Origin: an uncultured Verrucomicrobiae bacterium
GTDB lineage: Bacteria > Verrucomicrobiota > Verrucomicrobiia > Limisphaerales > UBA11358
Direction: 5' to 3'
Length of the DNA: 64,000 nt
Assembly (NCBI GenBank): GCA_963827815.1
Contig: CAWHCL010000010.1
Location: 128,482 to 192,481 of the forward strand
Shown: in pieces, positions 20,409 through 44,841 of the stretch
Position numbering within the stretch: the first letter of the stretch is position 1
How the letters are laid out: each line of letters begins with the position of its first letter
Notes under the pieces: model-generated
The model's database searches: none
The model's input: the letters and a program-made list of their open reading frames with translations, nothing else
What the model was told of the DNA's origin: nothing
Program-made: the position numbers and the translations under genes

Positions 20409-20471
20409 GCTGTCCACTTACAAACGGAAAAGTCCGGGCGTTTTTGCGGGCGGCGCGTGACGCGAACGGCA

Positions 20472-22233
20472 ATGTTGAACACAAAATCATTTCTGGCGGT
20501 GGATTTTGGGGCGGGCAGCCTCAAGCTCGCGGAATTTGAAACCAACGAGGCCGGCGGCTTGCGTCTCAAGACTTTTTCCATCAAGCCTCTCGGCCCCGAA
20601 GGCGCCCAGGAAGCCACGCGCGAAAAAATAATTCTCAAGGCGCTCCAGGAGACGCTCGTCGAAAAGGGAATCAAGGCGAAGGATGTCAATGTCTGCGCGC
20701 CGGGCTTCCACGTTTTTTCCAAATTCGTCAAGCTGCCGCCGGTGGATGCGAACAAGGTGACGCAAATCATCCAATACGAGGCGCAGCAGAACGTGCCGTT
20801 TCCGCTCGTCGGAAGTCGTCTGGGATTATCAGATCCTGGGTTCCGCGCCCGGTGGCGAACTCGAAGTGCTCCTGGTTGCCGTCAAGACCGAAATCGTCGA
20901 GGGCTTGTTCCGCGTAGCGGCGCAGTCGAAGCTGCGGCTCCAGTTGTGCGACGCCTCGCCGGCCGCCCTGTGCAACGCATTCCGTTACAATTATGGAGAT
21001 CTCGAAGACTGCACGATGCTGCTGGACATCGGCGCCAAGACCAGCAACCTGCTGTTCTTTGAAAAGGGGAAGGTCTTCTCGCGCAGCATCAACCTCGGCG
21101 CGAATGCCATCACCCAGGATTTTGCCAGCGAGGCGAAATTGAAATTTGAAGTAGCCGAGCAGATTAAGATCGCCGAGGGCTTCGTCAGTCTCGGCGGCGC
21201 TTACGAGGAGCCGGAAAATCCCAACCAGGCGGCCATCGCAAAAATTGCCCGGCAGTTCATGACCAAGCTCCACATCCAGGTCAACCAGACGATGCAGTTT
21301 TACCGCGGGCAGCAGGGCGGCTCTGCGCCGCAGCGGGTGTTCCTGTCCGGTGGCGCCTCCATCATGCCTTACACGGCCCAGTTCTTCGCGGAAAAGTTGA
21401 ACGTGCCGGTCGAATACTTCAACCCGTTCCGCAATGTCCAGATTGATCCGGCGGTGAATCTCGAGGAACTGGCTCGCGTGGCCCATTCTCTCGGCGAGGT
21501 CGTCGGGCTGGGGTTGCGCAATCTGGCGAACTGCCCCGTGGAGATGAATTTGATGCCGGATAGCACGCTGCGCTGGCGCGCGTTCAACGAAAAGAAGCCG
21601 TATTTCATGGCGACGTTTTTTCTGCTGGCGCTGGTCGCGGGGGCGATTGGGTTCCTGTTCCAAAAACTGGCGTCTGCCAAGGAAGACTCAATCAGTGATA
21701 TACAGCCGCAGGTTGAGGCGATTCAGTCCCAGGTGACAAGGATGAATTCGGCCAATGCCCAGCTTCTGACAACCTCAAACCAGTTGAGTCAAATCACGAC
21801 TTGGATGGAGGATCGGTATTACTGGGGTGATATCCTGGCGGAATGTCGCCGGGTTCTTATCCGCTCCGAGGACGAGGTCAGGAAAAAGTATGCAGCGCAA
21901 AAACTGGGGATGGAAGCTGGCATCTGGATCGATCAGATGACACTGGGAGCCGCAAGTCCTGCTCCCGGCGACACCAGCGCACCCCAGGCGGCGGCAGGCG
22001 GCACACCCGGTCAAATCAGCGCCATCACACTGGTCTGCCGCGCGGTGGATTTGTCGGGCATCGATTCCGCCGCCAACAACGAAATTGTCTATGCCGTCGA
22101 GCGCGAGTTGAAAGCCTCGCCGGTGTTTGACCCCAAATCGGTGCAGCCCTCTGCCCAGATTTCGCCGGTGGACCCCAACGGCACGTTCACTTTCACCATC
22201 ACCGTCTCGCCGCAGAACCCGCTGCAATTGTGA
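20472..22233 (+). pseudogene. pilM: PilM-PilN fusion protein of a type-IV-pilus-like system, one frameshift as assembled
   Basis: It starts with an actin-like PilM N-terminus (FLAVDFGAGSLKLAEF). The frame shifts at ~20808 (..NVPFPL|SEVVWDYQILGS..). The PilM body then continues without a stop into a PilN-like NLMPDS...TM helix and periplasmic domain. Confidence 0.75.
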
Positions 22234-23144
22234 TTATGGGCTGGCTCAAACGAAATCTATTTTTTGTGATTGGCCTCGTCGTGGCGCTGGGGTTGCTCGG
22301 CGCCGCCGGCTATTACGATTACGCAGGCTGGTCCCACAATCAGGACGCGTTTGCCAGGTTGAATGAGGTCTACAGCCAGTGGTCCACAGCAGCCAGCTCA
22401 AAGCCCTCCCCCGGCTCCGGCCCGGTGGATAACATCGCCGCCGCCAGGGACCAGGAAGGCCGGCTCCGCCAGTGGATCAATCAGGCCACAAAATATTTCC
22501 AGCCGGTTGCGCCCATTCCCAGGCCGGCCAATGGCCCCGTGTCGGGCGAGTTGTTTGCCGGTGCGCTGCACCAGACCATAGCCCAGTTGCAGCATGAAGC
22601 CGACGCCGCGAATGTCGTGCTGCCCCCGCTATACGATTTTTCATTCACGGCGCACATGGACCGGCTCACGTTCGCCCCCGGCAGCCTTGACCCGTTGTCG
22701 GTCCAACTCGGCGAGGTGAAGACTATTTCGGAAATTCTTTTTGGGACGGGCATCAATGCGCTCGACGGCATCCAGCGCGTCCCCGTTTCGCCCGATGATG
22801 CGAGCGGGCCGCAGACGGATTATCTGACCGATCAACCCGTGACAAACGATTTGGCGGTGCTGGTGCCTTATGAAGTGACGTTCCGTGGGTTCAGCCCGGA
22901 AATCGCACGGGTGCTCGGGGCGTTTGCTTCCTCCCCAAACGGGTTCATCGTCAAGACCATCAGCGTTCAGCCGGCCGGCGCGGCGACTGATATCCAGCCG
23001 GCTGGCGCAACCGCCACCGACCCCAACGCGCCCCAGCCGGCCGCGCCCATGCCGGGCAAGGGCGGGTTGCAAACGGTGCTGAATGAACAATTGTTGCGCG
23101 TCACCCTGACGGTTGAACTGGTGAAATTGACGCCGAAAAACTGA
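22230..23144 (+). CDS. Amuc_1100-like pilus-associated protein
   Basis: N-terminal TM helix, a central domain ...YEVTFRGFSPEIARVLGAF...FIVKTISV, a Pro/Ala-rich linker, and a terminal ...LLRVTLTVELVKL. This architecture, and the position between the pilM-like and secretin genes, match my recollection of Akkermansia Amuc_1100. It has not been aligned. GTG at 22230 or ATG at 22236 could be the start. Confidence 0.55.
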   Translation: MIMGWLKRNLFFVIGLVVALGLLGAAGYYDYAGWSHNQDAFARLNEVYSQWSTAASSKPSPGSGPVDNIAAARDQEGRLRQWINQATKYFQPVAPIPRPANGPVSGELFAGALHQTIAQLQHEADAANVVLPPLYDFSFTAHMDRLTFAPGSLDPLSVQLGEVKTISEILFGTGINALDGIQRVPVSPDDASGPQTDYLTDQPVTNDLAVLVPYEVTFRGFSPEIARVLGAFASSPNGFIVKTISVQPAGAATDIQPAGATATDPNAPQPAAPMPGKGGLQTVLNEQLLRVTLTVELVKLTPKN

Positions 23145-23148
23145 ACGC

Positions 23149-23969
23149 ATGGAATTCATCAAAAAAAATTACGAGAAGATTATTTTGAGCCTCGTGTTGC
23201 TCGGATTGGTGGGCGTGCTGGCGTTCATGCCCGTGATGATTATTTCCGACCAGCAGCGGATGAGGGATTTGCGGGATACGGTCAGGCATCCAAAAGCCGT
23301 GCCGTTGGCGGATTTGGATTTGTCCCGGCAGACGAATGTGATGGATCGGCTGCAATCGCCGGAGGACTTGGATTTTTCGACCACGAACAAACTGTTCAAT
23401 CCGGTGCAATGGGTGAAGAACAAGGACGGCACCCTGATGAAAATCACGACCGGTCACGAAATCGGACCGGGTGCCGCAGTCATCGCCAGAATCACACCGC
23501 TCTATTTTACCATCGCGCTGGATTCGGTGATTACCAACGAACCGGGTGCGCGTTACGTTTTCAGTATAGAGGATCAGACGGCGCCGATCCCGGCACAGCG
23601 TCATAAGCGGCCCCATTACGCCTCGAAGGGCGAAACGGTGTCGGACAAGATGGTGGGTGGAAAAAATGAGGGATTCACCCTCAAGGACGTGAAAGGCGCG
23701 CCGGAAAATCCGGATCAGTTGGTCCTGTTGCTGGCCGGAACGCAGACGCCCCGTGACCTTGTCGAAGGACAATCCGTTCCGGCGCGTGGATGCCTATTCG
23801 GCGGATTTGAAATATGATCCGGAAAAAGTCAGCGTCACCGGGTTGCGGGTGGGAGATCATTTAAGTTTCGCCGGTGACGATTACAATGTTATTGCCATCG
23901 ATCAAAACCGAAGTGATATTGTTGGCGCAGTCGAACCAAAAAAAATACACTTTGCCTTACACACCTTGA
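23149..23969 (+). pseudogene. small N-terminally anchored protein of the pilus-like cluster (positional equivalent of Amuc_1099), two frameshifts as assembled
   Basis: TM helix IILSLVLLGLVGVLAFM. The frame changes at the C4 run 23749-23752 and at ~23909 (aaaacc). The three pieces read ...LLLAGTQTP|VTLSKDNPFRRVDAYSADLKYDPEKV...IAIDQN|EVILLAQSNQKKYTLPYTP*. Confidence 0.6.
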
Positions 23970-24023
23970 GTGCTAGAATTGTCGCATTACACGCCGCCGA
24001 TTTACGACGAACCTGAAACGACC

Positions 24024-26821
24024 ATGACAAAAGCTGTTTTTCTCCCGCTCGGTTTTCTTTTACTGCTCGCCACCGCGTTGCCGGCGCAAACCAACAGCCC
24101 CACCGACATGGCCGTCAACCGGGCGGTGATGGATCAGGCCAACACCATTCTCCTGCGCCAAAAACTCGAAGACGCCAAAAATGCCGCCGCGCGCGGCGAC
24201 CTGCTCGGTGCCGCCAAGCTTTACGAGGATGCCAAGGCGCTCGTTGACCAGATTGGTTCCGGCATCGACGCCGAGACCGCCCAGACTATTTCCGGCCTTG
24301 TGGCCACCCGGCTGGAACTCGCGCGCCAGGCCCAGCACAACGGCGATCTTCTCGAAGCCGATGCGCAAGTCACCCGCGCTTTGAGGGTGGACCCGCACAA
24401 TGCCGCCGCCATCGCTTTCAAAAAGGAAAACGACCAGACAATGGCGGCCATGAAAGGCCACATGCCCGACGTGGCCACATTGGAGCGGATTCCGCAGGTG
24501 ACCAATGACAAGACGGAGGCCGGCACACTGGTGCAGGACGGTAAACTGCTCTATGAAATGGGCAAATTTGAGGAGGCCGAGGTCAAATTGAATCAGGCCT
24601 TGAAATTGGATCCGGACAACGAAGGCGCATTTTACTATTTGAACCTGGTCAAGCAGGCCAACTACGCCCGCGAGGAAAACAACCGCACCACCCAGGCGCA
24701 AAACAGCATGGTGCAGGTGGCCAAGTCATGGTCGCCGAAGGTTGGTATTGGGCTGCCCGTGCCCAATCCTTACGTCACCAACGACGACATCCACACCGGG
24801 GTCGGGCGCGAAGTCATATACCGCAAGCTGAATAATATCCAGTTGGATTCGATTTCCTGGCCGGACGGCCTGCCGTTGAGCGAAGTCATCCGTTACCTGA
24901 CGGAACAGTCCAGATTGCGCGACCCGGAGAAGAAAGGCATCAACTTTATATTCAATCCGAATGTGGAATCCAGTTCGGCAGCCGCTGCTGGCGGGCTGGG
25001 CGCCGGGGCTCCGGGTCCGCTCAACGCCACCACCGGGTTGCCTGAAGCGCCGGGGGCCAGCGCCACCCCCGAAACTGTGGACGCCAGCACCATCAACGTC
25101 AGGCTGACGCTGAATAACATTTCACTTCACGATGCGCTCGACGCGATCGTGCTGGTTGCCGATCATCCCATTAAATATTCCGTTGAAGATTATGCGGTGG
25201 TCATTTCAGCCAAGCCGTCTGGGCCGGAACCGCCGGTGCTTGAGATGCGCGTGTTCAAGGTGGATCCAAACACCTTTTACGAAGGCCTGCAAAATGTGTC
25301 CACATTGAATTTTGGCAGTGCTAACAGTTCCTCAAGCGGCAACGGCGGCAGCAGCGGCGGCAGCAGCGGCGGCAGCAGCGGCGGCAACAGTGGCGGCAAC
25401 AGTGGCGGCAACAGCGGCAACAGCGGCAACGGCAGCAGCGTCAGTGGCGCTACAGTGCCGGTGATATTGGTAACGGGAAGTAGCGGTGGCGGTGGCAACG
25501 GGGGTGGCGGCCGCACAGGTGGCGGTGGTGGCGGTGGCGGTGGCGGTGGCGGTGCCGGTGGCACTGCCGGTGGCACTGCCGGCGGTACAGTTGGTGCCAA
25601 CTCCGGCGTCGGCGGGTTGAGTTACATCAATCCGTCTCCCAATCAGATGCAAAATGTCACCGCGGTGGCGCAGGCTTTCTTTACCGCCATCGGGGTGAAT
25701 TTGTCAGCGACCGCGCCTGGCAGGAGTATCGCTTTCAACGACCGTTTGGGATTGCTGTTCGTGAAGGCTACGCCGGGCGAACTGGACACCATCGAACGTG
25801 CCGTTCAGGCGTTGAACCAGGTGGCGCCTCAAGTGCATATCAGGACCCGGTTCATCGAGGTGGGACAGGATGACAGCACCGCGCTGGGCTTCGACTGGTA
25901 TCTGGGCAATTTCATCAATGGAAATGTCATTGCCAACGGCGGCAGTGCGCCTTCGCTCACCGTGCCGGTCTCGACGGCCAACCCGCTTGGCAGCCTTCCC
26001 CGGCAATACCACGGCGAGCGTCATCGCGCCCTCTGCCAACGATCAACTGCTCACAAGCGGATTGCGCAATACCGGTCCAACTCTCGCCACCATCACCGGC
26101 ATTTTGACAGATCCGAATTTTCGCGTGGCCATTAGGCGCTTTGTCACAGCGCACCGGGGTGGAAACCCTCGCCGAACCGGAAGCCGTCACCACCAGCGGT
26201 CGCCAGACCCAGATGCGCGCGACCGACCTCGAGTTTATCCTCACCGGTTTCAGCTTCCAGACGGGCACGCCAGGCACGGTGGGAACGGCAACAACGGCTG
26301 CCACCGCCGCCGGCACCTCCGCCGTCACGCCGAACACGCAGCAGTTTGAGATCGGCCCCACGCTGGACGTGGTGCCTTACGTTTTGTCCGATGGTTACAC
26401 CATCAATCTCACGTTGATTCCCCAGGTGTTGCAGTTCCTGCAATACGACACGGTGCCGACGGTTCCCGGATACACGCCCAATACCGCCGTGTCCGCCGGT
26501 GGCACCGCCACGTTGCCGACGGTTCTGCCTCACTTCACCGTGCGCGAAATCGTCACCGAGGTGAACATCTGGGACAACCAGACCGTCGTCCTGGGCGGAT
26601 TGATTTCCTCGGCCATCAACACCACCAAGGACAAGGTGCCGTTCCTCGGCGATTTGCCGCTCGTCGGTCGGCTCTTTCAAAGCCAGTCCAAGACGAGCGC
26701 GAAGAATAACCTGATGATTTTTGTGACGGCCACGATTGTGGATCCGGCGGGCAACCGCGTGCATTCGGACGACGAGCTGCCGTTCAACCCGGTCGACCAT
26801 TCCGGCGCAGCCGGTGGTTGA
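24024..26821 (+). pseudogene. pilQ: secretin (PilQ/GspD family) with TPR-like N-terminal region and Gly/Ser-rich insert, two frameshifts as assembled
   Basis: Signal peptide MTKAVFLPLGFLLLLATALPA. Secretin core: VHIRTRFIEV..., GILTDPNFRVAIR, LSQRTGVETLAEPEAVTTSGRQ, VPFLGDLPLVGRLF. The frame changes at the C4 run 25998-26001 and the T3 run 26140-26142. Confidence 0.8.
25335..25600 (+). repeat. Gly/Ser/Asn-coding simple-sequence tract inside the secretin gene
   Basis: Tandem ggcagcagcggc, ggcggcaacagt, ggtggcggt and ggtggcactgcc units. They encode SSSGNGGSSGGSSGGSSGGNSGGNSGGNSGNSGNG...GGGGGGGGGGGAGGTAGGTAGG. Confidence 0.85.
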
Positions 26822-27980: not shown

Positions 27981-29983
27981 ATGTCGTTGTCGTTTGCCCG
28001 CAAGGCCGCCATTTGCTTTTGCTGGGGGTTGTTCCTCGCGGTTCCCGCCGCCGTTTTTGCCCAGACCAATTATTACACCACCAACGGGACGGAATACGCC
28101 GTCGTCGGCCAGTTGCCGGGCGATCAAGTCTGGCCCGACGTGGCGGTGAACACCAACGGCGGGTTTGTCGTGTGGCAGGACAACGCCACCGACGGCAGCG
28201 GCTGGGGCGTCAGCGCGCAGCGGCTGGACGGCACCCTGTCCGGCACGTTGAGCACCTTCCGCGTGAATGTGACGGGCACAAACGACCAGGAAAACGCGCG
28301 CGTGGCGCTGTTGAAAAACGGCGGCGCGGTTTTCGTCTGGCAGGGCGGTGTGGAGGGGCTGAATCAGCACATCTACGCGAGATTCCTGAATTCGAGCAAT
28401 ATTTTTATTGACCATCCACGGACGTGATGGTCAACACGTTCACCAATAATTTCCAGATCAACCCCGCCGTGGCCGTGCTGAACAACAGCAACGTCGTGGT
28501 CGTCTGGGGCAGTTATGACGAGGCGGGATCCAACAGCTTGCAGGATGTGTATGGCCAGACTTTTTCGACGGCGGGACAGAAGATCGGCGGCGAGTTTTTG
28601 GTGAACCAGTTCACGAATTACAACCAGCGCACGCCGGCCATCGCGCCGCTCGCCAACGGCGGGTTCGTTGTCGCCTGGGTTTCGGAGCAGGAACAGGCGG
28701 TGGCGCCAGTTTTGGGGACCAATTCAACCTATATTATAAGCAGCACCGCCACGGTCCCGAGCGTGGATGTTTACGCCAGGCTTTATAATAGCAACAGTCT
28801 TCCCCAGGGCGGCGAATTACTCGTGGACACAAACAGCTTGAATCCCTGCGCGAATCCTAGCGTGGCGGTTGCGGCGGACGGCAGTTTCATGGTGGCATGG
28901 GGGGGCTTCGACATGGTCAACCAGACCAACGGTTGGGACATCTATGCGCGGACTTTTTCCAGCGCGGGTATTGGCGGGGCGACTCTCCGTGTCAATACCC
29001 ATTTGCCGGGCAATCAATACGAGCCGCGCATCAGTTCCATTGGCGGGGATTATCTGGTGGCCTGGACGAGCATGGGACAGGACGGTTCGCGCGAGGGCGT
29101 TTATGGACAGTTCGTACACGAGAACGGTTCGCCGGTGGGCGGTGAATTTCTTGTGAACACAACCACCGCCGGCCAGCAGATGCAGCAGGCTGTGGCCTCG
29201 GATGGTGTGAGCCAGTTTCTTGCCGTCTGGACCAGCTACGCCGGCAGTCCCTACGGCTTTGATTTGTTTGCGCAGCGTTATATCAACGTCGCCGCCATTC
29301 TGCTGCCGATGAATGCGCCGATTGTCGTCGCGCCGTTCACCTTGAGCAACAATGTATATCAGCCGCAGTTGCAGGTCTCGTGGCCCGTGTTGCTGGGAAT
29401 TTCCGTCTCCAATTTTGAGGTTTACGTGGATGGATCGGGAACGCCCACTGGCGTCGTCACCAGCAATTCTTGGACGATGACCGCCGCGAATGGCTTGACC
29501 ACCAATAGCACGCATTCATTCACGGTGGATTACGTGAGGACGGACGGGCGGCGCTCGCCGCTGTCGCCTTCAGCCAGCGGTTCGACTTGGAGCGGGCTGA
29601 ATTGGGGCGGCATTCCGTATGAATGGATGGCCGCATTTTTCGGCGGATACTACGGCGGGGCTTATCACACAAATGGCTGGCCGGCTCCAAACCTGCCCCC
29701 GCCGGGCAGTTCGTCCGGTTCGCCCACCACTCTGCAGTTGTTTTTGAGCGGCGGCATCCCGTATGAGCCGGCCACATGGCTGCAACAGGTGCTCACCCGG
29801 ACGCCGCAAGGGATGTTCTTGAACTGGAACACGCAGCCGGGGCTGACCTACCAGGTGCAGGTGACTACGAATTTGACCTCGTGGAGCAATCTGGGTTCGC
29901 CGCGGTTTGCGGCGGGCACGAACGATTCGATTAATGTCGGCGGCACTCCGGCGGGTTACTACCGCGTGCTGTTGCAGCGTTGA
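27981..29983 (+). pseudogene. secreted beta-propeller protein (about seven G-G-F-V-V-x-W blades) + Fn3-like domain + [FY][FY]RV C-terminal module; one frameshift as assembled (locus gene A)
   Basis: Signal peptide MSLSFARKAAICFCWGLFLAVPAAVFA. Repeating ~55-60-aa units (NGGFVVWQD..., NGGFVVAWVSE..., DGSFMVAWGG..., GDYLVAWTS...GEFLVNTTT). Junction at ~28412 (NIFID|PSTDVMVNTF), consistent with one missing C. Ends ...GYYRVLLQR. Confidence 0.65.
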
Positions 29984-29987
29984 TGAA

Positions 29988-32357
29988 ATGAGTATGCAGC
30001 AAGTGATGAAACAATTTGTCGCGTTGGGTTTGATGGCGCTCGGCCTTCAAACTGCCGGGGCGTTTTCGCTCGGCGGGCCGATTGGCAACGCCGGTGACTC
30101 TTGGCAGCAGGCGGTGATCGGGTATGCCTTGGGTGGCGACCTCAATGCGCCGAAGAACATCGGCGAGGAATATCGCCGCAACCTGCCCGTGATGTATTAC
30201 GCTTGTAATGCGAATTTTCTGGATTTCTTCGGTTCAAACGGTGTTTCGGCGGTGGACAGCTCCTTTGCCATTTTGAACGGACTGACGAACGTGGACAGCT
30301 ACAGCCCCAGCCTTTCTGAGTTTCCCTTGGAAACGCGGCACTTGAATTATCAGGCGGAGGCCCTCGGGTTGTTCGATTTGAAATCGTGGACGCTGGGGGC
30401 GATGGTGGAGCAGTTGGGGCTGGCCGACCCGGTGCGCTACGACTGGACCCTGCATGATCGCGCTCATGTCGGCAATATTGCCTGTCCCGTGGGCATGGAA
30501 TATCTCGTGGTGCAAAGAAATTTTGATTCCATCACCAGCCCGTTGAATCAGCTTCAATACTCGCCTTACGTCAACAACACCCTCTACAGCTACTACATTG
30601 TGGAGTTTTGCACGGGGCCGAATCCCCTGGCTTTGTCCGTCCCTTTTTCCGTGGATCCTTTGGCGGACACCTATTCACCGGTCGCTTCGTTTCAGTCCGT
30701 TGGCTTGACGTATGGTCAATTTTACACCGGCCTGACGCGGGATGACGTGGCCGGGTTGCGTTATGATTTGACCGCCAACAACATCAACTTTGAAAGCCCG
30801 CCCGCAGGGGGGTTGTTGCTGACCACCAATCTCGGCACAGTTCAGGTCATCACCAGTTCCAGCCTCACCGCATTGATGTTGTCCGCCCAAACCAATGCTC
30901 CGACCCTGATTCCAGCCTTGTTCCCGGGCGTGTTGGTGGCGGGTTCTTCGAGTTATTTTGCCGAAGTTTGCACGACCAATTACGTCGCATCCATCCCAAG
31001 CCAGAATTATGGCGCGCCGTATCCTGCTAATTTTGGCGCGTTGGTTCTCTCGCCCGTGGTCAATTGCGGTTACCAGCAACTGTATGTGACCACTTTTGCC
31101 AATGTCATCACCAATGGCAATCTGACCAACAACCCGAACATCACTCTCGCCAGCACCAACATCGTTTTGAGTTTTTCTACCAACAGCATTGTCACCACGT
31201 TGACGACTTCGCTCACCCCGAACACAGCGCCGGGCCAGCCCTATCCGCCGCCCCCGGTAACGAATGCCAATTTCACCTATTCGACGACAACCGTCAATGT
31301 GCCGTCCGGGGAATATCTCATCCTTCCGACCGGCGCGTGCGGGTTCAACATCCTTGGCGAACTGCCTTTGCCTCCGGTTTTTACCACTAACTTTGTTTCC
31401 ACGGCCACCAACGCGAACGGTTTTGTGGACACGGTCAGCACCGTCACTTCGTTCACGCCCCACCAGTTTCTTGTCCAGCCAATCAATTGCGGGACTGCCA
31501 CGCCGGCCCCGGGTTTGCGTGAGGGCATTGAGCGGATGCAATTTGTTCGGGCCAATTATGATTCGCTCCTCGGCCAGTTCTTCCAGCCCATCACCAATGC
31601 CTTCACGATCGGTCCTGGTCACCAACAGCCAGGCGGTGAATCAGGCGTTCCAGCGCGTGGTGACCACTCCTGATTTCATCTTTTCCGCCGCGGATTTGGC
31701 TACGGGTCCCTCCAGCACTCCTCATCCCGTGGTTGCTTTAGTTTTTCGCGCAACCTCAATTTTGACCAGTCCCAAATTTTGCCGGGACTGGCCGGGCCGG
31801 GGCTTATCACCCCGTCCACTACCATCACATTCGACAAGGTCGGTCCGGTGTATTACAACGAATACAACACCGATATCATGGATGGAACGCCCTATTTCAC
31901 CGAAACCCCCGGCAATGACGGAAACGATTTGTACTATTCATTTTACTTTGTCTGGGCGTCCTACGATGGCACGACCAATGACCCGGTGGTTTATCCCAAC
32001 GGCAGTAGCATTCAGAATCTGGAGAACCAGGTTTTGGTCCAGATTGCCCCGGCTGGTCTGCCGAATGGGACGAACGGGTCGCCCTATTTATTCGTCTACA
32101 CGAACTCCGTCGGCATCGTTTACACAAATACCATCACGGCCACGGGTGGTGCGTTTACCTATTCCCCGCCGCCCACTTGGACGGCAACGGGACTGCCGTC
32201 GGTCCCCTCATCGGGATTGCCTCCGGGACTGACATTGTCGCCCGCCGGGGTGCTTTCCGGCACCCCCACGCAATCCGGCACATTTGATTTCTACCTCGTT
32301 ATGACCGATGCTTTGGCCCGAAGCGTGCAATGGTATTTCTCGATCACCATCCCATGA
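29988..32357 (+). pseudogene. secreted protein of unknown family (locus gene B); frame excursion 31610-31745 as assembled
   Basis: Signal peptide MSMQQVMKQFVALGLMALGLQTAGA, then FSLGGPIGNAGDSWQQAVIGY...NIGEEYRRNLPVMYYACNANFLDFFGSNGVSAVDS. The frame goes 0 -> 1 at ~31610 and back at ~31745. The C-terminus has an Ig-like PPGLTLSPAGVLSGTPTQSGTFDF segment. Confidence 0.55.
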
Positions 32358-32401
32358 GCGCTATGACACATAACTTTTACACAACTCTTCCGGGCCGGCT
32401 G

Positions 32402-35400
32402 ATGAAATGGCCCCGGTTGTGCGCAATGTTGGGCCTGCTGATGACGCGCGCCGCATTGGCCACGGACCCAATGTATGAAAATGACGGCACCGTGGATTAT
32501 ACCGGCGCAGCAGGTACCTATCCACCCCAGATTGACGCGACTAATTTTGTCAACGCTAACGGCGGTGTGTTCATCATTGATTGGAATATTATCTCGGATC
32601 TGGCCAACAACTATTACGAAACTTTGAACACCGTCAATTACACCAACAACAATTTGATGAGCAGCGACGACGGCTTCTGGTTCATGACGCAGACAACCAA
32701 TGTGATTTCACAGCAGATGGCCGGCACCTTCTATAATGCGGGCGAGGTGGATTGCAGTTATCAGTGCGTCGTCTGGGCAACCAACATCCTGAATCCCGGG
32801 ACCGTGAACGTGCCGGGCTATTTGACCATCGTGAATCAGGGCACGCTCGCGACGGGTACGTCCGCCCTGTTGCAATTCACCGGGCAAAATGTGGATTTGA
32901 CCGGCAGCGCGCTCAGCATAGCGGGTGGCCAGGGATCCGCCCAGGCGGTCGGGCTTTTTGGCAAGATCGGTCAGGACACAAACAGTGATTGGGATGCAAG
33001 TTTTGATTTGGGGTCAACCTACGCGTTCCCTTCATTTCCCGTGAGTGGTTTGTTGCCGCCAAGCTCGGGCGGTTATGGCTTCCCCAACCTGCCGCTGAAT
33101 ACGACGCCTTATTTTAATGTCACAGCGGTCGGGACAAACACCATCATATACCGGGCGGTTTTCCTGCAGGATACCAGTGGTGCCGGCGTCTCCCACAATA
33201 CCTACTTCGACAGCGCCGGTTTTGTTGGCGGCGGCAACGCCACCGTTGAATGGGTCGGCTCCTATGTGGACCCGGCGACAGGTATTCCGGCCACACATTA
33301 CCTCTATCTGAACGATAATTATCTCCAGTCTGTCGCCACCAACGATCCGATTGCCAATGGCGTGCCGTTTAATTTCACGTTCACAGAGAGCCCCACGCAA
33401 ATAGGCCTTGGCACCCCCACCGCCGCCGGCTTTTTGAATGTGTTCGATTCCGGTTTCGTCAGCAATCGTTTTGCCTATGTCAGCGCGCAGTTGATCGCAA
33501 CGAGTGCGGGTACCAACAGCATTCCAAATCACTCCATCACGAATCTCCCCGCCCGGATTCAGATCAATGCCAGCCACGAGCTGAATTTGGCGCTGGCCCA
33601 GATTACCCAGCCGGATTATCTTTCGTTGCGGGCAACCAATCAATATGATGGCAATGCGGGCGCGCGAATCGCCGCGCCGTTCAGCGACATCAATCTCGGC
33701 GTCACCAATGGATTCAATGGGCCTCTTGCCTTCACCAATCTTCTGCCCCAGTCGTTTCCAATCTGGGGCGGCACGTGTCAGGCTTGGAGTACGCGCTGGT
33801 TTGTCCTGACCACCAACACCTCCATCGTATTTTCCAACGCCATACCCATTGCCACCAACAACTTTGCAGTGACTAACGATTTTCGCATCGAAATTGTTGC
33901 CAGTCAGCTCGCGCCAACATCCATCGCCCAGGTGCAGAACCTGGTTTTGCATGACACCAACAGCGTGGTCATAAGTGACGCGCTCAATGTCCTGCAATCG
34001 CTGTCCATTAACGCGCAAAGCCTGACCTTGACGACCAATGTCTTTGGCAATGGCGCGAGTTCCGCCGACGGCGAGTTGAACTTGGAATCAGCCGGCATAC
34101 TCTGGCCGGGTTCGTTGCCGAATCTGCTCTGGCTCACCAACAACGGCGGCATCAGCACCATGAATCTCGCCAATTTTGGCTCCGCCGCACAGCCTTATGG
34201 CGCCTTCGTCAACAGCGGCCGCGTAAGCAATTTGGGCGGCTCCGCCATCTGGGCGCTGGATTTTGAAAACTACGGGACGTTCTTCTCCGGCACCGGCAGC
34301 TTTAACCTGCAATCCCTGGCCACGACCATGACGAATGGCTCGGTTGTTGCCGGTGGTAACATCACCATTGGGACAGCCAGCTTGGTGGCAAGCAACTCGG
34401 TCTTGTCCGCTGGGGCCGCGCTGAATCTTACGGTCACCAATTTGCTGGCGGATACCGGTGCCACCAACGGCAATATCTGGCAGATTGGCGGCAAGGCCCC
34501 AAGCGCCAGCCCGGGTATTTATTTTAACAACGGCTTCAATCTGCCTATCAAGCCGCCGGTCAGGCGATTTGCTGGGGACGACGGTTTCCAACGTGGTGCC
34601 TCCTCAGGCAGTTAGTGGCCTTGTCACAAATCTCAATGTCACCATCAATAACCTTTGGTCGGGCTTGGATGATGGCGTTTCCAATTCGGGCTACACGAAC
34701 AATGTCGCGGTGGGACATCTCATTTTGGATGCGCAGGGGAAAAACAGTATGTTCAAATTCTACGGTACCGGCGCAAGCAACGCGATTTATGTGGACCGTT
34801 TGGAACTGCGCGATTATGCCAGTTGGACCAATTTGGCCGGCAGGGACATCCACAACAATCTGCTGGCGCTGTCGTTTAATACCAATCTGGTGATTTATTA
34901 TGCCGATGCGATTTCCCAGGGCGCTGGTGATGTGTCGGAGGAACTGGATCAAAAGAATAACGGCCATCTTCGATGGGTCCCGTCTTACGCCGGCTATTTC
35001 AGTTCCACCAACATCGTTATCTGCCGGCGTGACCAATACGGTAAATGTTGCGTTGGCTCAGAGCCATGACATTGATTCCAATGGCAATGGTATTGCCAAC
35101 GTCTCTGACCCCGTGCCGTTCTTCTTGGCGGGCATGATCAATTTGGCGGTGTATCCGACCAATCAGCCGGCAAACACCGTGGCGATCAGTTGGGATGCTG
35201 TTCCGCTGGCAACCAACACCGTTCTCTATTCGACCAATCTTGTGAACTGGCAGCTTTTGTCGAATGTTTATATTCCGACAAATCCTTTTATCACGCCGAG
35301 TCCATATCCCGGGCCGGTGACAAACATCATTATTTTTGACCCGAAATCCGTTCCTGGACGGTTTTACAGGGTTTCGATTTATCCGTGGCTGACATATCCA

Positions 35401-35406
35401 TATTGA
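32402..35406 (+). pseudogene. secreted ~1000-aa protein of unknown family with [FY][FY]RV C-terminal module (locus gene C); two +1 frameshifts as assembled
   Basis: Signal peptide MKWPRLCAMLGLLMTRAALA. N-terminus DPMYENDGTVDYTG...PPQIDATNFVNANG. Asn/Thr/Ser-rich beta-helix-like body. Junctions at ~34559 (gg) and ~35025 (cc). Ends ...GRFYRVSIYPWLTYPY. Confidence 0.55.
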
Positions 35407-35506
35407 TGAATGCCGAAACTGTGCACAACGAACGTTGATTTGTTTGGTGAATGTCTGGCGCTTTGCGTTGCGTCAGGCTCGAAGGAATAAACTTGTGAAA
35501 ACGAAC

Positions 35507-38500
35507 ATGCAAACATTTGCAGGCCGGGGGCTGGGAAGCCTACTCCGGAGCGCTGGCTTGGCAAGGCTGGGACTTATGGCTCTGGCCGGTTTGACGTTGA
35601 GCGTCGCCCATGCGCAGCCGGCAAATGATAATTTTGCCAGCGCGATTGACCTCACCCCCTATGGCGACACGGGTTCAACGACCAATAGCAACGTGGGAGC
35701 AACCATAGAGCCGGGTGAACAAAATTTAGATGGTATTACTGTCTTCGCTTCGGTCTGGTATTCATGGACGGCCTCCACCAATGAAACCACGGAGTTTGAT
35801 CCCAACGGCAGTGCTTTTGGCACGAATCTGGCCTTTGTACAGGTTTTTACAAATAAGGCTGGCGGTAGTATCAGCAATCTGCAGTTTGTGGCCTATAGCT
35901 ACTCCGGTTATTATGGTGGAACTTTTTATAATTCCACAAATAGCTTCCAGGCGGTGGCGGGGCGGACATACTACATATCCGTGGCGGGTTATCAATTTCA
36001 GAGTGCCACCGGGGCCATTCAGTTGAATTGGTCCTCTGGCCCGCCTATTCCTCCGCCCTCCAACGACAACTTTACCAACGCCGCCGTTCTGACGGGCGAT
36101 TGGGGCACTACAAATGTGAACAACAGCCGGTTGCCACCCATGAGCCCGGCGAACCAAGTATCGCCGGTTCTCCGCCAAACGCCTCGGTTTGGTATCAGTG
36201 GACTGCGCCGTCGGATGGCGAAGTAACCTTGGATACCATCGGCAGCAGCGTTGGACACGGTGCTGGCGGTTTATACTGGCACCAGTCTGGCGGACCTTAA
36301 CCAGATATCGGCCAATGACGACCTTTTCCCGGTCAACACCAGTCTTGCGCAGTCCAGTGGAGCCGCTAATGAAACAGCCGACAGCTCGGAAGCGGCGCTC
36401 TTTGGTCCCGGCTCCACCCCGGTATTTGGTTACTATCAGCCTTACTATGGTCCCAGCGGCCTTCGCTTCAATGCAAAGGGTGGAACGACTTATGACTTTG
36501 CGGTGGATACAAAAAGCGGGACGGCGGGTCCCATTTCGCTGAATTGGGCCTACAAGTCTTCAGGCGTTTTCCGCTGGGCCACGGAAGATCGGGATCTGCA
36601 GACGGGGCAGCAGCTTTATCAAACGGCGCAGACGGAAAGTGCCACGCCCGCGGGGCTTAATAACCAATCTCTTTCAGCCGTGTCCACCTATTACACTTAC
36701 AACGTCCCCGGCGTTTTGGTGACGGTCACCCGCGTCGCCGGCTCTACTGGGCGCGTGACGGTGGATTATTCTACCGAAGATGGTACTTTTGTGCCCATTC
36801 CGTTCAATGACGTTCCCGCCTTCGCCGGAATTGATTATCAATCCGTTCATGGCACTCTTGTTTTTGACGATTACGAAATGAGCAAGACCATTCTCGTTCC
36901 AATTGTTAATTCTGGGGCCAACTTGTATAACATGGATTTTGGAGTGGTGCTGTCAAATCCCCAGTTGGACCCGTCCGAATCCAGCGACGTGTCCCCGCCC
37001 CGCGTGGATCCGTCGTTCAGCACCGCCATGGTGAAAATCTTGAATACAGGCGCCGATCCTTACGGTCCTGACTACGTTCCGCAGTTGTTAACCAACATGG
37101 TTGCTGTTTATGATACCAATGTTCCGCCGAATTTCTTGTACAATACCAACGTTGTTTCCACCAACACGTGCTGGCCCTTTATCCCACCAATGCCATTTTC
37201 AACTTTGAGAAGGCCAATTATCGCGTGCCGGCGGATGTGAATGGAACCAATAGTCCGTGGACACAGGTCACTCTTTGGGTGGAGCGGTTTGGAACGAATG
37301 CCAGCGCTCAGACCCTCAATTATCGGGTCAACAACTTCCTCGGTGTATGATCAGCAAGTCTGACGAAGAGGAGAACGCCTTAATTTCCGCTCCAGCCGGG
37401 TTCCGACTATGCCGTCCCGACTCCGCCCAGCCAGCAATGTGTTTAAGGGGAGAAATTCCGATTTCAACCTGGCTTACGGGCACCATCAGTTTTCCGGCGC
37501 ACTGGCGCCGGCGAAGCCCTTACCAACCCATCACCTTCACCGTGACCAACGCGCAGCCTCACGAAATTCAACAAGGATTTCAAGATCGAGCTGTTTCAGA
37601 CAAAAACTGTTGGTGGCCACAATGTGCCGGTGCTCGTGGGCATGAACAGCGAAACGACGGTGACCATTTTGTTCAATGATCAAAATCCCCCGGCGGGTTC
37701 CGTGGACGAGCTTTACAACGCGGATTTCAACGGCGACCTTGCCCTGCCGCCCGCCCAGGTCCCACAAACCTGGCCGGTCAACAATCTGGAAAATCCCGGC
37801 GTTTCAGGCCAGGTGTATGGCTCTGGCGGTTCTCACCAATGACGAGACCATCATCGCCGGCAATTTTTTCATCCTATAATGGCTATGCCCAGAACAACCT
37901 CGCGCTGCTCAACACCGATGGTTCGATGGACACCTCCTTCAATCCGGGCGACAGCGCCAGCGGCGCCATCAACGCCCTCGCGCTTTACGGCAGTCAATTT
38001 GTCATCGGTGGCGCGTTCACGTCTTATAACGACCAGGGCGTCGGCAACTTTGCCCGGGTGAACTGCGGATGGTTCGCTGGACTCGGCCTTTTCCATCTCC
38101 CAGGGTTCGGGCGCGGATGCCGCCGGTTCGCGCGGTCGCGGTGCAGCCGGATGGCAGGGTGGTCATCGGCGGTGATTTCACCCACGTGGATGGAGTCGCG
38201 CGCAATTATCTGGCAAGGTTGAATGCCGATGGTTCGTTGGACGCGTCCTTCAACCCCGGCAGCACTTTGAACGGTTCGGTTTATGCCTTGGCGCTCCCCC
38301 AGTCCACGGTTTTTAGCCTGATCCGCAATGATCCCACCAACAGTCCCAATGAGGACGTTCAGTATATCAATCTCGGCACGTTGACGTCCGGCACCTTGAC
38401 AATTAATTACAACAGTTATCTCTACACGAATTTCATGGGCGTTTTTTACGGTGGCACCAACACCGTCACGGGGGCTGGGGTCAGTCTGGGCGCTTTCACC

Positions 38501-41500
38501 AACATCGGCGCCGGCACGATTGTGATTCCCTTTGGCCCTACGGGACTTCTGCGTACCGTCAGTACCAATCAGTTGGCCATCGTTATGAATCAGGGCGGCT
38601 CGCCTTACCCCGTGTTGACGTGGACTTATACCGCCTCGGTGACTGCGTCGCTACGTCAGCGGGATGCTCGTTGGCGGACAGTTTAATGTCGCCGGGCAGT
38701 CCTACGCCAACATCGCGCGCTTCACCACCAATGGGGTGCTGGACACCACCTTTAATCCCGGCACGGGGCCGGACAACACGGTGCTGGCGCTCGGGTGGCA
38801 GTTGAACAATCAGGTCGTCGCGGGCGGCGTCTTCACCCATGTCAATGGCAACTCCTATAATCATATCGTCCGGTTCAATGCGGATGGTTCGATTGACACG
38901 ACCAACTTTTTTGTCGGCACCGGCGCGGACGACGTGGTTTATAACATCACCCTTCAGCCGCTGTTCGGTTCGATGTATGTCGGCGGGGCGTTCTCATCGT
39001 TCAATGGCACGCATCGCCGTGGTTTCACCCGCTTGTATTCCAACGGCACGGTGGACACCACGTTCCTGGACATGGCCTACAATCAGTTTGCCGGTTTGAA
39101 GCGGATTTATTCCTATGACTCGCCCGCGGTCTATGCCTCGGGTTTTGAGAGCGATGGCAATGTGCTGATCGGCGGCTCCTTCGAGCAGGTGGGCGGCGGC
39201 CAGGCGGATACAAATGTCTGCGACGTTTTGGATGACGAATTGGGTTATGACGAAAGTTTTGACCGATTCCGAATTTGTGGGTGGAGCCCAAGACGCGCGA
39301 TGGCGTTCGCAACCGCAGCGGCATCGCCCGTTTGATCGGCGGTTCGACGCCGGGCCCCGGCAATATCAGTTTGCAGCAGACCAGTTATTCGGCGAATAAA
39401 AGCTCAGTCGTCGCTTTCCGTGGGTCTGGTGCGGACCAATGGAAATTTGGGTCCGATTTCGGCCGCCTTTTCCGTGCTGCCGGGGCTGGCACAAAGCGGC
39501 AGCGACTACGCTTATAGCGGCGCTCCGCCACTGTTTTGGATAGACTGGGATATACCGTGATATCCTATCCGTCGCGCATGCACGAGGACGGCTTGTCCGG
39601 CGTGAACGGTTTTCTGGTGGATCCTTACGGCATGTAGTCTGACAACGGCTACGAAGGATAAGGCCATGAACAACCTGTCCACGGTCACGGTCAGCATCAT
39701 TAAAGACACCCAGAACCCGGGCAATCTGAATGCCCAGTTCCAACTGGCCAACCCCGCGCAGGCAGGATCAATTTTATCTGGGCGGTGAAAACATTCCGCT
39801 CGGCGCCGCATTGGGAACCTCCCTCTCGCCGCTCACCATCATTGACGATACCCAGAAGCCGGGCGTCTTTGGTTTCAGTTCCTCAACTTATGTCGCGACC
39901 AACGCCAGCCCTTCCATCAGCGTGCTTCGCAGCAACGGCATTGCGGGCAGCATTTCCGTGAAATACTCCACCATCAACAGCAACAGCACGGCGGTGGTGG
40001 GCACGGATTATACGGGCCTTACCAATGCCGGACCTTTGGTTTTCAACCAGGGTGTTGTCAGCAACGCATTTCATGTAGCGGTCAACAATAATGGCCTCAT
40101 TTACACAAACATTGTGGAAAAGACGGTTGATTTGGCGCTGTCGTCCCTCGGAACCTCGCCGGCAGGCGCGACCTATGGAATATCAAACGCCATCCTCCGC
40201 CTCATCAATCCCAATTTCCGGGGTTACCTGACTCTGGCCGCCACCAACTTCAGCGCCACTGAAAGCTCCGGTTCCATCGCCTTTGTCGTCAACCGCGTCG
40301 CCGGCAGTTTGGGCAGCGTTTCCGTCCAATACTACACCACCAACGGCTCGGCCCTGAATGGGAGGGATTACACCGGCTCCACCAACACCTTGAATTGGAA
40401 CAGCGGGGACGTTTCGCAAAAAATCATCAGCGTTCCGCTCATCAACACCGGCATCGTTGGCACCAACAGGCAATTTCGGGTTCTGTTGTTCAATCCCATC
40501 GGTGGGCACTCACCAATACTCCCGCGCTCATGGGCGCCATCAGCTAACGCCACGCTCACCATCAGCAATAACAACAGCTACGGCGCGTTGCAGTTCAGCG
40601 CGCCGGTTTACAACGTCAATGAAAACGGCGGTTACGCCACCCTCACCGTCACCCGCACGGGCGGCGCCGTCGGGCAGGTGTCCGTCAACTACGCCACCAG
40701 CGATGGCCAGAATACCACCAGCGGCGTCAATTACTCCAACACCCTCGGCACCCTCGTTTTTGCCGCCAACCAGGTCAGTGCCAGCTTTGCCGTGCCGGTC
40801 ATGGATGATGGCATCGTGGACGGCCCGCCCACCAATTTCTATTTCAATGTCACCCTGTCCAATCCGACCAATGCCGCCCTGGGTTCGCCAGCAGGCGCGC
40901 AGGTGCAGATATTGGATGCGGAAAGCTACAACCGGCCGCCTGGCTCGCCGGACACCGGATTTCAATGCCGCCGGCATGAATGGAAGCGTCTTCTCGCTCG
41001 CCCTGCAGCCCGGCGGGCAGATTCTCGCCGGTGGCAATTTCACCGCCGTGGGCACCACGGGCGAAGGCAGCTTTGCCCGCCTGAACCCGGACGGCACGCT
41101 GGACACCACGTTCCTCTCCGGCCTCGCCGGGGCGAATGGTTCGGTGCAGTCCATCGCGTGCCAGACCGATGGCCGTATTTTGCTGGGTGGCTCCTTCGGT
41201 TCCGTTGACGGCGTCTTCCGCAATTTCATCGCGCGGGTGCAGACCGATGGTTCCCTGGACACCAGTTTCAATCCCGGCCCCGGCGCGGACAACATGGTGA
41301 ATGCCGTTGCGGAAACCTTTATCAACGGCGTCCGCGAAATTTACGTCGGCGGCGCCTTCGGCAACATCAGCAGTGAATATCAGTCCCGGCATCGCGCGCT
41401 TGAATAATGACGGTTCCGCGGACGGTTCGTTCTCCGTCGGTTCGGGCGCGGACGGCGCGGTGTATGCCGTCGCCGCTTATCCGACCAATTCTCTTTACGC

Positions 41501-44500
41501 CGGCAAGCTTGTTGATTGGCGGCGCGTTCGCGCACTTTAACGGAACGCCTTTGAACGGTCTGGCGCGATTGAATGTGGATGGTTCGCTCGACACGAATTT
41601 CAACGCGAACCTCGGCCTCGGCGCGACCGGCGGCGTCGTCCGGGCGCTGGCCATTCAACTGGATGGTCGCGTGCTGGTGGGCGGCAGCTTCACCAATTTT
41701 AACGGCGCCAACGTGAATTATGTTCTCCGTTTGAACACCGACGGGACCGTGGACACGAATTTTGCCGCCGGCACGAGCGGCTCGGTTGAAGGCATCGCGT
41801 TGCAGGCGGACAACCGGATTATTTTGGTCGGCCAGTTCACCCAGGCCAACGGCGTCACGCGCAATCACATCACCCGCCTGCTGCCGACCGGCGCGACGGA
41901 TCCAACGATTAATTTCGGGGATGGCGCCAACGGCGACGTGGACGCCGTGGTTGTTCAGCCGGCGGATGGCATGTTGGTGATTGGCGGCAATTTCAGCCAG
42001 TATGACGACCAGCCGTATGCCAACATCGCGCGGATTTATGGCGGTTCCATCACCGGTTCGGGCCAGTTCGAATTCACCTCGCGCGAATTTTCAGGTGCAT
42101 GAATACGGCGGTAATGGCGCTGATCACCATCCTGCGCACGGGTGGCACCAGCGGCACCAATGCCGACGGTTCGGGCGACGTTTTCGTCAATTTTTCCACG
42201 ACCAACGTCAACTCGGCCGTGGCGGGTGTCAATTATACGCCCCAAAATCTCAATGTTGATTTCCCGGCGGGCGAGGTTTTGCGGACGGTGGCGGTTCCGG
42301 TGATGGACGACATGGCCATCACGACCAATTTGCTGGTGGGTCTGGTGCTGTCCAATCCCACGCCCGCGGGCGGTTTGGGCAATCAGCCGACTGCCACGTT
42401 GACGATTGTGAACGATGACAGCGCGGTGAGCTTTTCGTCCACTTTCTATTCGGTGCTGAAAAATGTCCAGAACGGGGTGGCGTCCATTGACATCATCCGC
42501 CAGGGCGGCACGAGCAATGCCTGCACGGTGGATTTCTACACGACCACCAACGGCACGGCCATTCGCCGGCATGGATTACGTCCCGACGAATGTGAACCGT
42601 GACTTTCAATCCCGGCGATTACGGAGTGGCCGTTCCCGCTTGCCGTCATCAACAACGGTTTGGCGGAGGGCAATCAAACGGTCGGTCTGGCGTTGACCAA
42701 CGCCGCGAACACGCTCCTGTTTGCGCCTTCCAACGCGACGTTGACCATCATTGACACCACACCCGCGCCGGGCCGGTTGAGTTTTTCCGCGACCAATTAC
42801 ACGGTCAATTCAACAGATCCGAATGCTTATGTCACCGTCATGCGCACGAATGGTTCCGTCGGCTCGGTTTCCGTCAACTACGCCACCGTTCCCGGCACGG
42901 CTTTGCCGGGCATCAACTATAATTCTGTCAGCGGCTCGCTGACCTTTGGCGCTGGCGAAACCGTCAAGACCTTCCCCGTGCCGCTGGTGAACCAATAGTC
43001 TCAGTGCATCCTCCGCGTGACGCTTCTCCGCTGGTGTTGTCGAATCCAACCAGGCGGCGCCACGCTGATTAATCCGACCAACACCACCGTCACCATTCTG
43101 AATAATAATTTCGGCGTCTCATTCCTCAATGCCACCAATTACGTCAGCGAGACCAACAGCACCGGCCTCATCTTTGTCCAGCGCATTGGCAATCCCACCA
43201 ATGGCTTCCAGGTCAACTACGCCACCACCAACGGCACAGCCCTTGCGGGAATTAATTACAATACCACCACCGGCGCGCTGAACTTTGTCAGCGGCGAAAT
43301 CCTCAAGACGATCTCCGTGCCCCTCATCAACAATCAGTTGACGACCAATCTGGCGTTCGGTATGACCCTGTCCGTTCCCACCTCCGGCGCCCAGTTGGTG
43401 GCGCCAAGCAACACGCTGGTGGTACTCCAGGCGGGCGCGGCGGGATTGAGTTTCACCAACTCAACCATGAGCATCTTCAAATCCAGCGGCGTTGCCGTCA
43501 TCCCCGTCGTTTGCTCCAATCCGGGCATCGAGCCGGCGATTGTGAATTCCAACTCCGTGCCGCTCTCCGTGCAATATTACACCGTGGATGGCACTGCCGT
43601 CAGTGGTCAGGATTATACCGGCCAGAGCGGAACGCTCGTCTTCACCAACGGTGCCGTGACCAACTCCATCACCGTTCCCATCAGCAACAACAGCCTGATC
43701 ACCGGCAGCCGCGCCTTCTCCGTGGTTCTTACCAACGCGACCGCCCCCGGCAAAATCACCTCGCCCAGCAACCAGGTCGTGACCATCATTGACAACAATT
43801 CCGGCTTGAGCTTCTCAAGCCCGACTTACACCGTGCAACAAGACCAACGTGGCCGTGACGATTACCATCCTCCGGACGGACAACACCAATACGGTCTCGA
43901 TGGTCAACTTTGCCACCGCCAATGGCACGGCCGTTGCCGGCACGGATTATATCGCGACCAACGGCACCTGCATTTTCACCAACGGCGTCACCAGCCAGAC
44001 GTTCTCCGTGACGGTGATTGCCGGCACAACCGTTCAGCCGGATAAAACGGTGCTCCTGCAATTGTCCAGTCCCACCGGCGGCATCCTCGCTCCGCCCAGC
44101 GCCGCCACGCTCACCATTTATGACACCAGCGGCAGTCTGGTGGTTCCGGCGGGCTCCGCGTTCTACCAGCCGGGAGGCGATCCCAACAACAACGGCATCA
44201 TTGACCCGGGCGAGGCGGTCAAGCTGTGGTTCGCGTTCCGCGCCGAGGGCGGAAACACTGTGACCAACCTGTATGCCACGCTCCTGGCCACCAACGGCGT
44301 CACCTCGCCGTCACCAAACACTGCCGTCAGTTATGGCCAGTTGAATGTCGGCGGTCCGTCCGCTTCGCGCGCTTTCAGTTTTACCGCCGTCGGCACCAAC
44401 AGCCAGCAGATCGTCGCGACGTTCCTCCTCACCAACGGTGTGACCAGCCTCGGCACTGCCGTGTTCACCTACACCTTGGGCACTTGGACGACCGTTTTCT

Positions 44501-44841
44501 ATAATACCAACGCCATCATCATCAATGCCGCAGCAACCGGTTCGCCTTATCCGTCCTCTATTACCGTCAGCAATCTCGGCGGTGTGCTCATCAAGGCCAC
44601 GGTCACGCTTACGAACATGTCCCACACCTTGCCATCGGCCATCAACACTCTGCTCGTGTCGCCTAATCAAAATGACACCTTGTTCATGTCCCACGCGGGT
44701 GGCGGGGGGAATGGCGGGCCGATTAATAACGTCACGCTCATGTTTGACGACGCGGCCACCAATTCCCTGCCGAACAACGGCCAGATCACCAACGGCGTTT
44801 ATAAACCCACCCGATACGGCGGGGCGCCCATTTTCCCATGA
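35507..44841 (+). pseudogene. giant (~3100 aa) secreted Calx-beta / delta-60-repeat propeller protein (locus gene D), fragmented into >=22 ORF pieces as assembled
   Basis: Signal peptide MQTFAGRGLGSLLRSAGLARLGLMALAGLTLSVAHA. There are two ANDNF...SVWY.WTA modules and many Calx-beta-like units (G.V.V.Y.T..GTA..G.DY....G.L.F..G). It also has delta-60-type repeats (DGSLD.SFNPG...) and a C-terminal P-domain-like segment. The translations of the ORF-track pieces from 35435-36226 through 43849-44841 continue one another across frame changes. Confidence 0.7.

Follow-up and report, generated by a model that had tools for sequence, protein, structure and literature searches.

What is the C-terminal module that ends four exported proteins in one verrucomicrobial locus, and what might it do for the proteins that carry it? 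The locus lies in a stretch of 64,000 nucleotides from an uncultured Verrucomicrobiae bacterium (Limisphaerales, UBA11358; GenBank assembly GCA_963827815.1, contig CAWHCL010000010.1, positions 128,482 to 192,481), the whole of which was analysed and is referred to below as the window. Verrucomicrobiota are abundant in soil and water, where they act as polymer degraders with large repertoires of secreted enzymes, and the targeting of these enzymes is poorly understood. An earlier note on the window had proposed that the proteins of genes A, C, E and H, secreted and otherwise unrelated, share a tail of about 70 residues with no assigned function, and had likened this tail to sorting or anchoring domains. 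Sequence profiles and predicted structures show the tail to be a divergent, truncated fibronectin type III (FN3) beta-sandwich with the predicted strands A-B-C-C'-E-F, which may, tentatively, act as an end-domain for attachment.

Four exported proteins end in one module

Translation of the window showed that all four carrier proteins end in one homologous module of approx. 65–80 amino acids (aa). The modules and their genes are given below together with the scores of a profile hidden Markov model (HMM), here called external-only as it was built from 322 domain copies of which none came from the window, against the 923 six-frame open reading frames (ORFs) of the window.

27981-29983, plus strand: gene A, exported repeat protein (signal peptide at 27981, frame change, ORF 28424-29983)
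29756-29980, plus strand: end module of gene A (external-only HMM 55.8 bits, E=2e-16; translation)
32330-35406, plus strand: gene C, in three overlapping frames (32330-34615, 34458-35069 and 34900-35406)
35149-35403, plus strand: end module of gene C (external-only HMM 19.6 bits, E=4.7e-5; alignments)
44875-47388, plus strand: gene E (signal peptide, pro-kumamolisin activation domain, S53 peptidase, DUF11, end module)
47164-47385, plus strand: end module of gene E (external-only HMM 34.0 bits, E=1.5e-9; AlphaFold, Foldseek, orthologues)
55837-57921, minus strand: gene H (signal peptide, parallel beta-helix, choice-of-anchor Q, Asp-rich linker, end module)
55840-56079, minus strand: end module of gene H (external-only HMM 95.1 bits, E=1e-28; AlphaFold, Foldseek)

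All four tails claimed by the earlier note are present, with the quoted residues and end points correct on translation: gene A ends in ...GYYRVLLQR (stop codon 29981-29983), gene C in ...GRFYRVSIYPWLTYPY (stop codon 35404-35406), gene E in ...VFFRDRIGP (stop codon 47386-47388) and gene H in ...FFYRVGVQ (stop codon 55837-55839, minus strand). The module starts proposed for C (35133) and E (47172) were out of frame and had to be moved to 35149 and 47164. The signal peptide of gene A, MSLSFARKAAICFCWGLFLAVPAAVFA at 27981, is located upstream of ORF 28424-29983 in a different frame; an apparent frame change is seen near 28400-28420, next to a T5 run, and the same repeat motif occurs in both frames, which we infer to be one gene. 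Gene C, with the signal peptide MKWPRLCAMLGLLMTRAALA and no matching Pfam family, is apparently one exported gene spread over three frames, its continuity being judged from the overlapping ORFs. Its module, which has an insertion of ~12 aa between strands C' and E and six extra C-terminal residues, is the weakest member of the four. Gene E matched PF09286 and PF01345 in Pfam, and in gene H the choice-of-anchor Q domain occupies aa 530-572 (NCBIfam NF041518, E=1.7e-11). The carriers are thus as unrelated as had been proposed: an RTX-like repeat protein (A), an unknown protein (C), an S53 sedolisin with DUF11 (E) and a choice-of-anchor Q beta-helix protein (H).

Secretion of the carriers was also borne out, by N-terminal signal peptides recognised by eye on all four and, beyond the window, by a crude signal-peptide test that was positive in 20/34 carriers compared with 25/136 control ORFs.

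The external-only HMM ranked the four tails above all other ORFs of the window in the order H, A, E and C, the next-best ORF reaching only E=0.11, and no fifth copy of the module was found among the six-frame ORFs with two different HMMs. A profile of E-type orthologue tails could be aligned with an H-type profile without loss of register (hhalign probability 84%, E=7e-6). Since the external-only scores and this alignment agree, the similarity of the tails exceeds chance, and the claim of a common module holds. That the tails share merely a compositionally biased beta-strand pattern could be argued from the weak pairwise BLAST scores among them (14–23 bits) and from the low score of the C tail, but the profile E-values, the gap to the next ORF, the hhalign result and the identical predicted strand order of the H and E models make it extremely improbable, and for the A, E and H tails such a chance resemblance is already contradicted.

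Outside the window the module is very frequent. A profile of the four tails returned 165 short proteins, of which 117 among the 120 listed end ≤5 residues from the module; the proteins returned were all <150 aa and hence uninformative on internal positions. An exhaustive HMMER search of cluster representatives with an 18-sequence profile yielded 14,843 representatives at E≤1e-3 and 1,289 at E≤1e-10, part of the former being ordinary FN3 arrays. The module of gene A has many near-identical metagenome tails, every one of them terminal.

A truncated FN3 fold

The assignment to FN3 was made with profiles and with structure models. A short-type profile built from 33 diverse module copies matched the solved FN3 domains 3mpc_A (E=3.2e-6), 5g56 (6.8e-5) and the neuroglian FN3 1cfb (0.005), and another module profile matched 3mpc_A at 2e-4. 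These alignments span strand A to the strand-F 'YYY' and then end. The conserved pattern of the module corresponds to the FN3 core, with the strand-B Trp, the strand-C Tyr, the 'TNL..W' turn and the strand-F Tyr-Arg. In the AlphaFold model of the H tail (m64d447b428da; predicted local distance difference test, pLDDT, 87.6) strands A, B, C, C', E and F are predicted, and the model of the E tail (me0dae889f696; block-mean pLDDT 79–92 over the module) has the same six. Both models follow the strand order of the FN3 superfamily (A,B,E / C',C,F), and the superfamily's sequence-profile similarity is found as well. The best Foldseek matches of both tails were FN3 domains (DSCAM, Tencon, monobodies and 3MPC), with probabilities of 0.9–0.99 and template modelling (TM) scores of 0.5–0.59.

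In Pfam and NCBIfam scans no curated model covered the tail in the four proteins, in 10 further carriers or in 33 isolated modules. No match to PF00041 (fn3) or its clan was obtained on the four proteins at E≤1 or on the 33 modules, and in other carriers, scanned whole, only sub-threshold Tissue_fac and fn3_SORL1 matches appeared. A literature search on FYRV ends and on C-terminal sorting in Verrucomicrobia turned up no account of the module.

Chitosan-binding modules of Paenibacillus chitosanase/glucanase (2rv9/4zxe/4zy9) also matched the short-type profile partially (E~2e-4, positions 16–66) and appeared in the Foldseek list for the H tail model, which hints, weakly, at possible carbohydrate binding by the module.

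The missing last strand and the chain end

The canonical FG loop and G strand of FN3 are absent from the module, with no strand following F in either the H or the E model; the seventh (G) strand and the domain length of ~90–100 aa that characterise FN3 are therefore lacking. The chain ends 4–6 aa past the conserved strand-F Arg in ~95% of carriers in four data sets. Two H-family relatives, P0306 and P0346, continue past the module with '...YYRVSVRFGPPPPPPNS', a rare exception to this end.

Tandem copies make the same point from a different side. In proteins that end with the module, short-form copies repeat with a period of 81 aa (77–84), in arrays that reach eight or more copies and likewise extend to the C-terminus, whereas classical bacterial FN3 arrays have a period of 93 aa (89–96) and a last copy that is not terminal. 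In the classical arrays 'YYYRVRA' is followed by 'xNxxGxS' and the G strand; in the short form FYRVxL is followed by a short Pro-rich linker leading straight to the next strand A. The period difference of ~12 residues matches the FG loop plus the G strand, and the module therefore represents a distinct short FN3 subclass, in which all copies of an array, and not the last alone, are without strand G.

The position at the chain end was examined in a sample of representatives from the exhaustive search and in genomic loci. The module was terminal in 128/149 representatives, 72 of which hold from two to more than eight copies: 75/77 single-copy and 53/72 multi-copy representatives end ≤10 aa from the C-terminus. 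Among 47 carrier ORFs read from DNA in 34 Verrucomicrobiota loci, the last copy lies 1–7 residues before every stop that was reached, and this rule covers tails other than the H type too. Single copies are thus almost always C-terminal, but the short form does have internal copies, since it forms tandem arrays. The reservation that the module might prove to be a generic internal Fn3/Ig domain applies in part as well, as it belongs to the FN3 superfamily and its profile retrieves ordinary internal FN3 arrays.

Genomic matches came almost entirely from Verrucomicrobiota (Verrucomicrobiae, Pedosphaera, Limisphaerales and subdivision 3), with the addition of one member of Kiritimatiellia, and the closest tail among them shared 66% identity; this host scan used an H-type peptide pattern only, so other subtypes are undersampled in it. 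Two or three tail-bearing genes within 12 kb were seen in L006, L007, L008, L009, L011, L017, L018, L023 and L032, and the window likewise clusters such genes, with four in 28 kb.

Passengers, linkers and conservation of the tail

The passengers vary between carriers, with S53 peptidase, beta-helix, PKD, PPC/subtilisin and RCC1-like domains among them. The choice-of-anchor Q domain is found in H and in 50/54 of its relatives, and on H and the 54 relatives examined no PEP-CTERM, LPXTG or type IX secretion system (T9SS) model matched. The 'choice-of-anchor' domains were named for the PEP-CTERM, LPXTG or T9SS anchors that they precede (bioRxiv 10.1101/2023.03.06.531300).

The Asp-rich linkers of H and C, described in the earlier note as Asp/Asn-rich and calcium-site-like, resemble bacterial TSP3 repeats. 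They matched no Pfam family, and PF18884 was not detected in them even at E≤10; paralogues of H do match PF18884 (TSP3_bac) at the position of the linker. In 23/54 H-like carriers we also observed a match to positions 111–153 of the NCBIfam Amuc_1099 pilus-like profile (best E=1.7e-13), which covers the 'DSDGDGMxNWQEWxAGTxP' linker before the module (e.g. aa 184–225 of P0125) and not the module itself, and probably reflects a shared TSP3-like motif.

The tail is kept in 117/117 orthologues of the sedolisin (gene E) and in 116/117 top relatives of H, whose family exceeds 3500 homologues; the top 120 matches of H and of E are all close relatives with the same tail. In the H family the conservation of the tail (0.55) is on par with that of the family's other conserved domains and above that of the beta-helix (0.40), and likely surface residues are conserved too, in 'SNIVGQ.GTTSYTDTNA'.

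Comparison with known C-terminal domains

The closest solved relatives, the Fn3-like protein of Clostridium thermocellum (3MPC) and the FN3 module of CtXyl5A (5G56), share core residues and strand order with the module, and like it they occur on secreted multidomain enzymes. The module differs from such bacterial FN3-like domains in its place at the chain end and not between domains, in its repeat of ~81 instead of ~93 aa, in the absence of the FG loop and G strand and in its failure to match a Pfam FN3 model.

The C-terminal domain (CTD) of T9SS substrates (type A, TIGR04183/PF18962) and the module are both small Ig-like sandwiches at the extreme C-terminus of Sec-exported proteins with unrelated passengers. 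The T9SS CTD, however, has a compact 3+4 seven-strand fold (PMC11285876), compared with the six strands predicted for the module, and published descriptions restrict T9SS to Bacteroidetes (PMC5445135, PMC11611037). The module forms tandem arrays, and the hosts found for it belong to Verrucomicrobiota and the Planctomycetes-Verrucomicrobia-Chlamydiae (PVC) group. In Bacteroidota with T9SS machinery the CTD is cleaved by PorU. TIGR04183/PF18962 and related T9SS models gave no match on the tails at E≤1, and T9SS CTD structures were absent from the top 50 Foldseek matches.

With PEP-CTERM and LPXTG signals the module shares the slot after choice-of-anchor domains. In contrast to them, it is a folded domain of ~70 aa without a signature motif, hydrophobic helix or basic tail, and its sequence ends in ...[FY]YR[VIL]x(3-5) with no hydrophobic stretch. 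The PPC domain (PF04151) is, like the module, a C-terminal beta-sandwich extension on secreted proteases such as that of gene E. PF04151 did not match the tails of the four proteins or the 33 modules, and the two are distinct because both occur within single proteins, a PPC domain being present elsewhere in the module-bearing carriers P0124 and P0164. By any test run, therefore, the module is not a T9SS CTD, a PEP-CTERM/LPXTG signal or a PPC domain.

The GW, SLH and CWB2 repeats resemble the module in being C-terminal, in variable copy number, in diverse passengers and in having no membrane-spanning segment. They have no sequence or fold relationship to it, and the envelope of the module's hosts is diderm.

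What the module may do

The comparison with sorting or anchoring domains with which the earlier note ended is favoured by the end position, the export signals and the slot after choice-of-anchor Q, while the tandem copies and the plain FN3 ancestry agree with it less well; a sorting or anchoring role is a possibility with partial support. We favour, while giving it somewhat less than an even chance, the reading that the module is a non-covalent surface-retention or binding end-domain of exported proteins. As the final folded domain of multidomain proteins that Verrucomicrobiota export via Sec to the cell surface or beyond, it would be non-catalytic and would hold its passenger by non-covalent binding, either to the cell envelope or to a polymer. 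One to several tandem copies would space the passenger and attach it alike, and the exposed edge of strand F beside the free C-terminus would be the likeliest contact surface. In its mode such a domain would be comparable to C-terminal surface-retention repeats (GW, SLH and CWB-type) and not to a cleaved sorting peptide. A copy number that varies at the C-terminus, here from one to more than eight, is a usual trait of repeats for non-covalent anchoring or binding but is not typical of sorting tags, and the module displays several features of the anchoring-repeat class, namely the C-terminal position, the variable copy number and the diverse exported passengers.

Several results weigh against this interpretation or against the fold on which it is built. 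All Foldseek E-values were >0.05, because the domain is short, and the FN3 call consequently depends mainly on the sequence profiles. In the model, the ~19 N-terminal residues are predicted with less confidence and may substitute for the G strand. Of the folded domains of the sedolisin orthologues, the tail is conserved least: its identity is 0.42, as opposed to 0.56 in DUF11 and 0.72 in the catalytic domain; it evolves as fast as the linker, with chiefly core positions conserved, and this fast evolution would also fit an inert structural domain. Moreover, the top-150 sample, which underlies the counts of terminal copies, is dominated by one paralogous family (H-like).

Rather unlikely, in our estimate, is an inert FN3 spacer with no specific partner, brought to the terminus by domain shuffling or by tandem duplication at the 3' end. 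It would account for the clear FN3 ancestry with co-retrieval of classical FN3 arrays, for the tandem repeats, and for the fast evolution of the E tails, in which mostly core residues are kept. At the end of a chain, however, nothing is left to space, the module is terminal in nearly all single copies of the sample and wherever a carrier ORF of the 34 loci runs to a stop codon, and the tail has been retained almost without loss in the sedolisin and H families. As the positional rule holds and the chain end is fixed, selection on the terminus is indicated.

Another explanation is a dedicated secretion or sorting tag, read by outer-membrane machinery of Verrucomicrobiota and maybe removed afterwards like the T9SS CTD. 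We regard it as unlikely. The near-absolute C-terminal position with its end fixed 4–6 aa past the Arg, the export of diverse passengers, the slot where known anchors sit and the conservation of H-family tails, likely surface residues included, all favour a tag of this kind, and T9SS CTDs are likewise small Ig-like sandwiches (PMC11285876). Against it stand the plain FN3 ancestry, the lack of a match to any sorting-domain model in the Pfam and NCBIfam scans, the absence of a hydrophobic helix and a basic tail, six predicted strands instead of the 3+4 seven of the CTD, the low conservation of the tail among sedolisin orthologues and the presence of PEP-CTERM proteins in related genomes. The module also forms arrays of up to eight or more copies, and we know of no sorting tag that does so. 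No co-distributed machinery was identified, and no search for a sorting enzyme or translocon was made. It is similarly doubtful that the G-strand-less end-domain is the export or attachment signal of an undescribed Verrucomicrobiota/PVC sorting system, in which the free strand-F edge and the C-terminus would serve as the recognition site for an outer-membrane partner that possibly supplies the missing strand.

Completion of the Ig-like fold in trans, with an envelope anchor or the next subunit donating a G strand for a donor-strand-type attachment or polymer, would agree with the lack of strand G in every copy and with strand F as a free edge beside the C-terminus, but it is very unlikely, given that the monomer models are confident without a donor strand and that no candidate donor was seen.

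Neighbouring genes

Gene D, between C and E (35435-44841, plus strand), extends over several frames and codes for a giant protein that is exported and contains many Calx-beta domains together with DUF5122 beta-propeller repeats. The module is absent from the ends of gene D and of gene B (~29985-32357).

Upstream of gene A, at 20457-26821 on the plus strand, is a cluster matching Amuc_1101 (PilM-like), Amuc_1100, Amuc_1099 and Amuc_1098 (secretin) of Akkermansia in that order; all matches were below the NCBIfam cut-offs, and the PilM-like gene and the secretin are each in two frames. The cluster lies ~1.1 kb from gene A with a 5'-3' exonuclease gene in between. With this cluster the window resembles the verrucomicrobial genomes in which the module was found. 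A link of the tails to secretion via this Amuc_1098–1101-like cluster was considered and set aside on account of the intervening exonuclease gene; the linkage is known from the window only.

Long genes of the window are commonly broken into overlapping ORFs, namely the PilM-like gene, the secretin, gene A, gene C, the giant gene D and glgB, with break sites at ~21000, ~26135, ~28400-28420, ~34500-35000, 35435-44841 and ~49140-49540. These look less like pseudogenes than like the indel errors that a long-read assembly would leave.

In three related loci, PEP-CTERM ORFs (VPEPS, hydrophobic helix, RRRR) adjoin the tail-bearing genes (L002 6273-7187, L019 1813-2433 and L020 1776-2648), so that a sorting system already exists in these bacteria.

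Implications for Verrucomicrobiota

What is new is an FN3 subclass that is very common, follows a strict C-terminal rule and escapes the Pfam and NCBIfam models tested. A dedicated domain model would improve the annotation of Verrucomicrobiota, with thousands of protein clusters concerned. If the domain is a structural FN3 variant only, the gain would consist of that domain model and of a stable six-strand example of the FN3 fold. If it is a PVC sorting signal, its role would parallel that of the T9SS CTD in Bacteroidota. The end-domain offers a concrete handle on how the phylum retains its enzymes on the surface or exports them.

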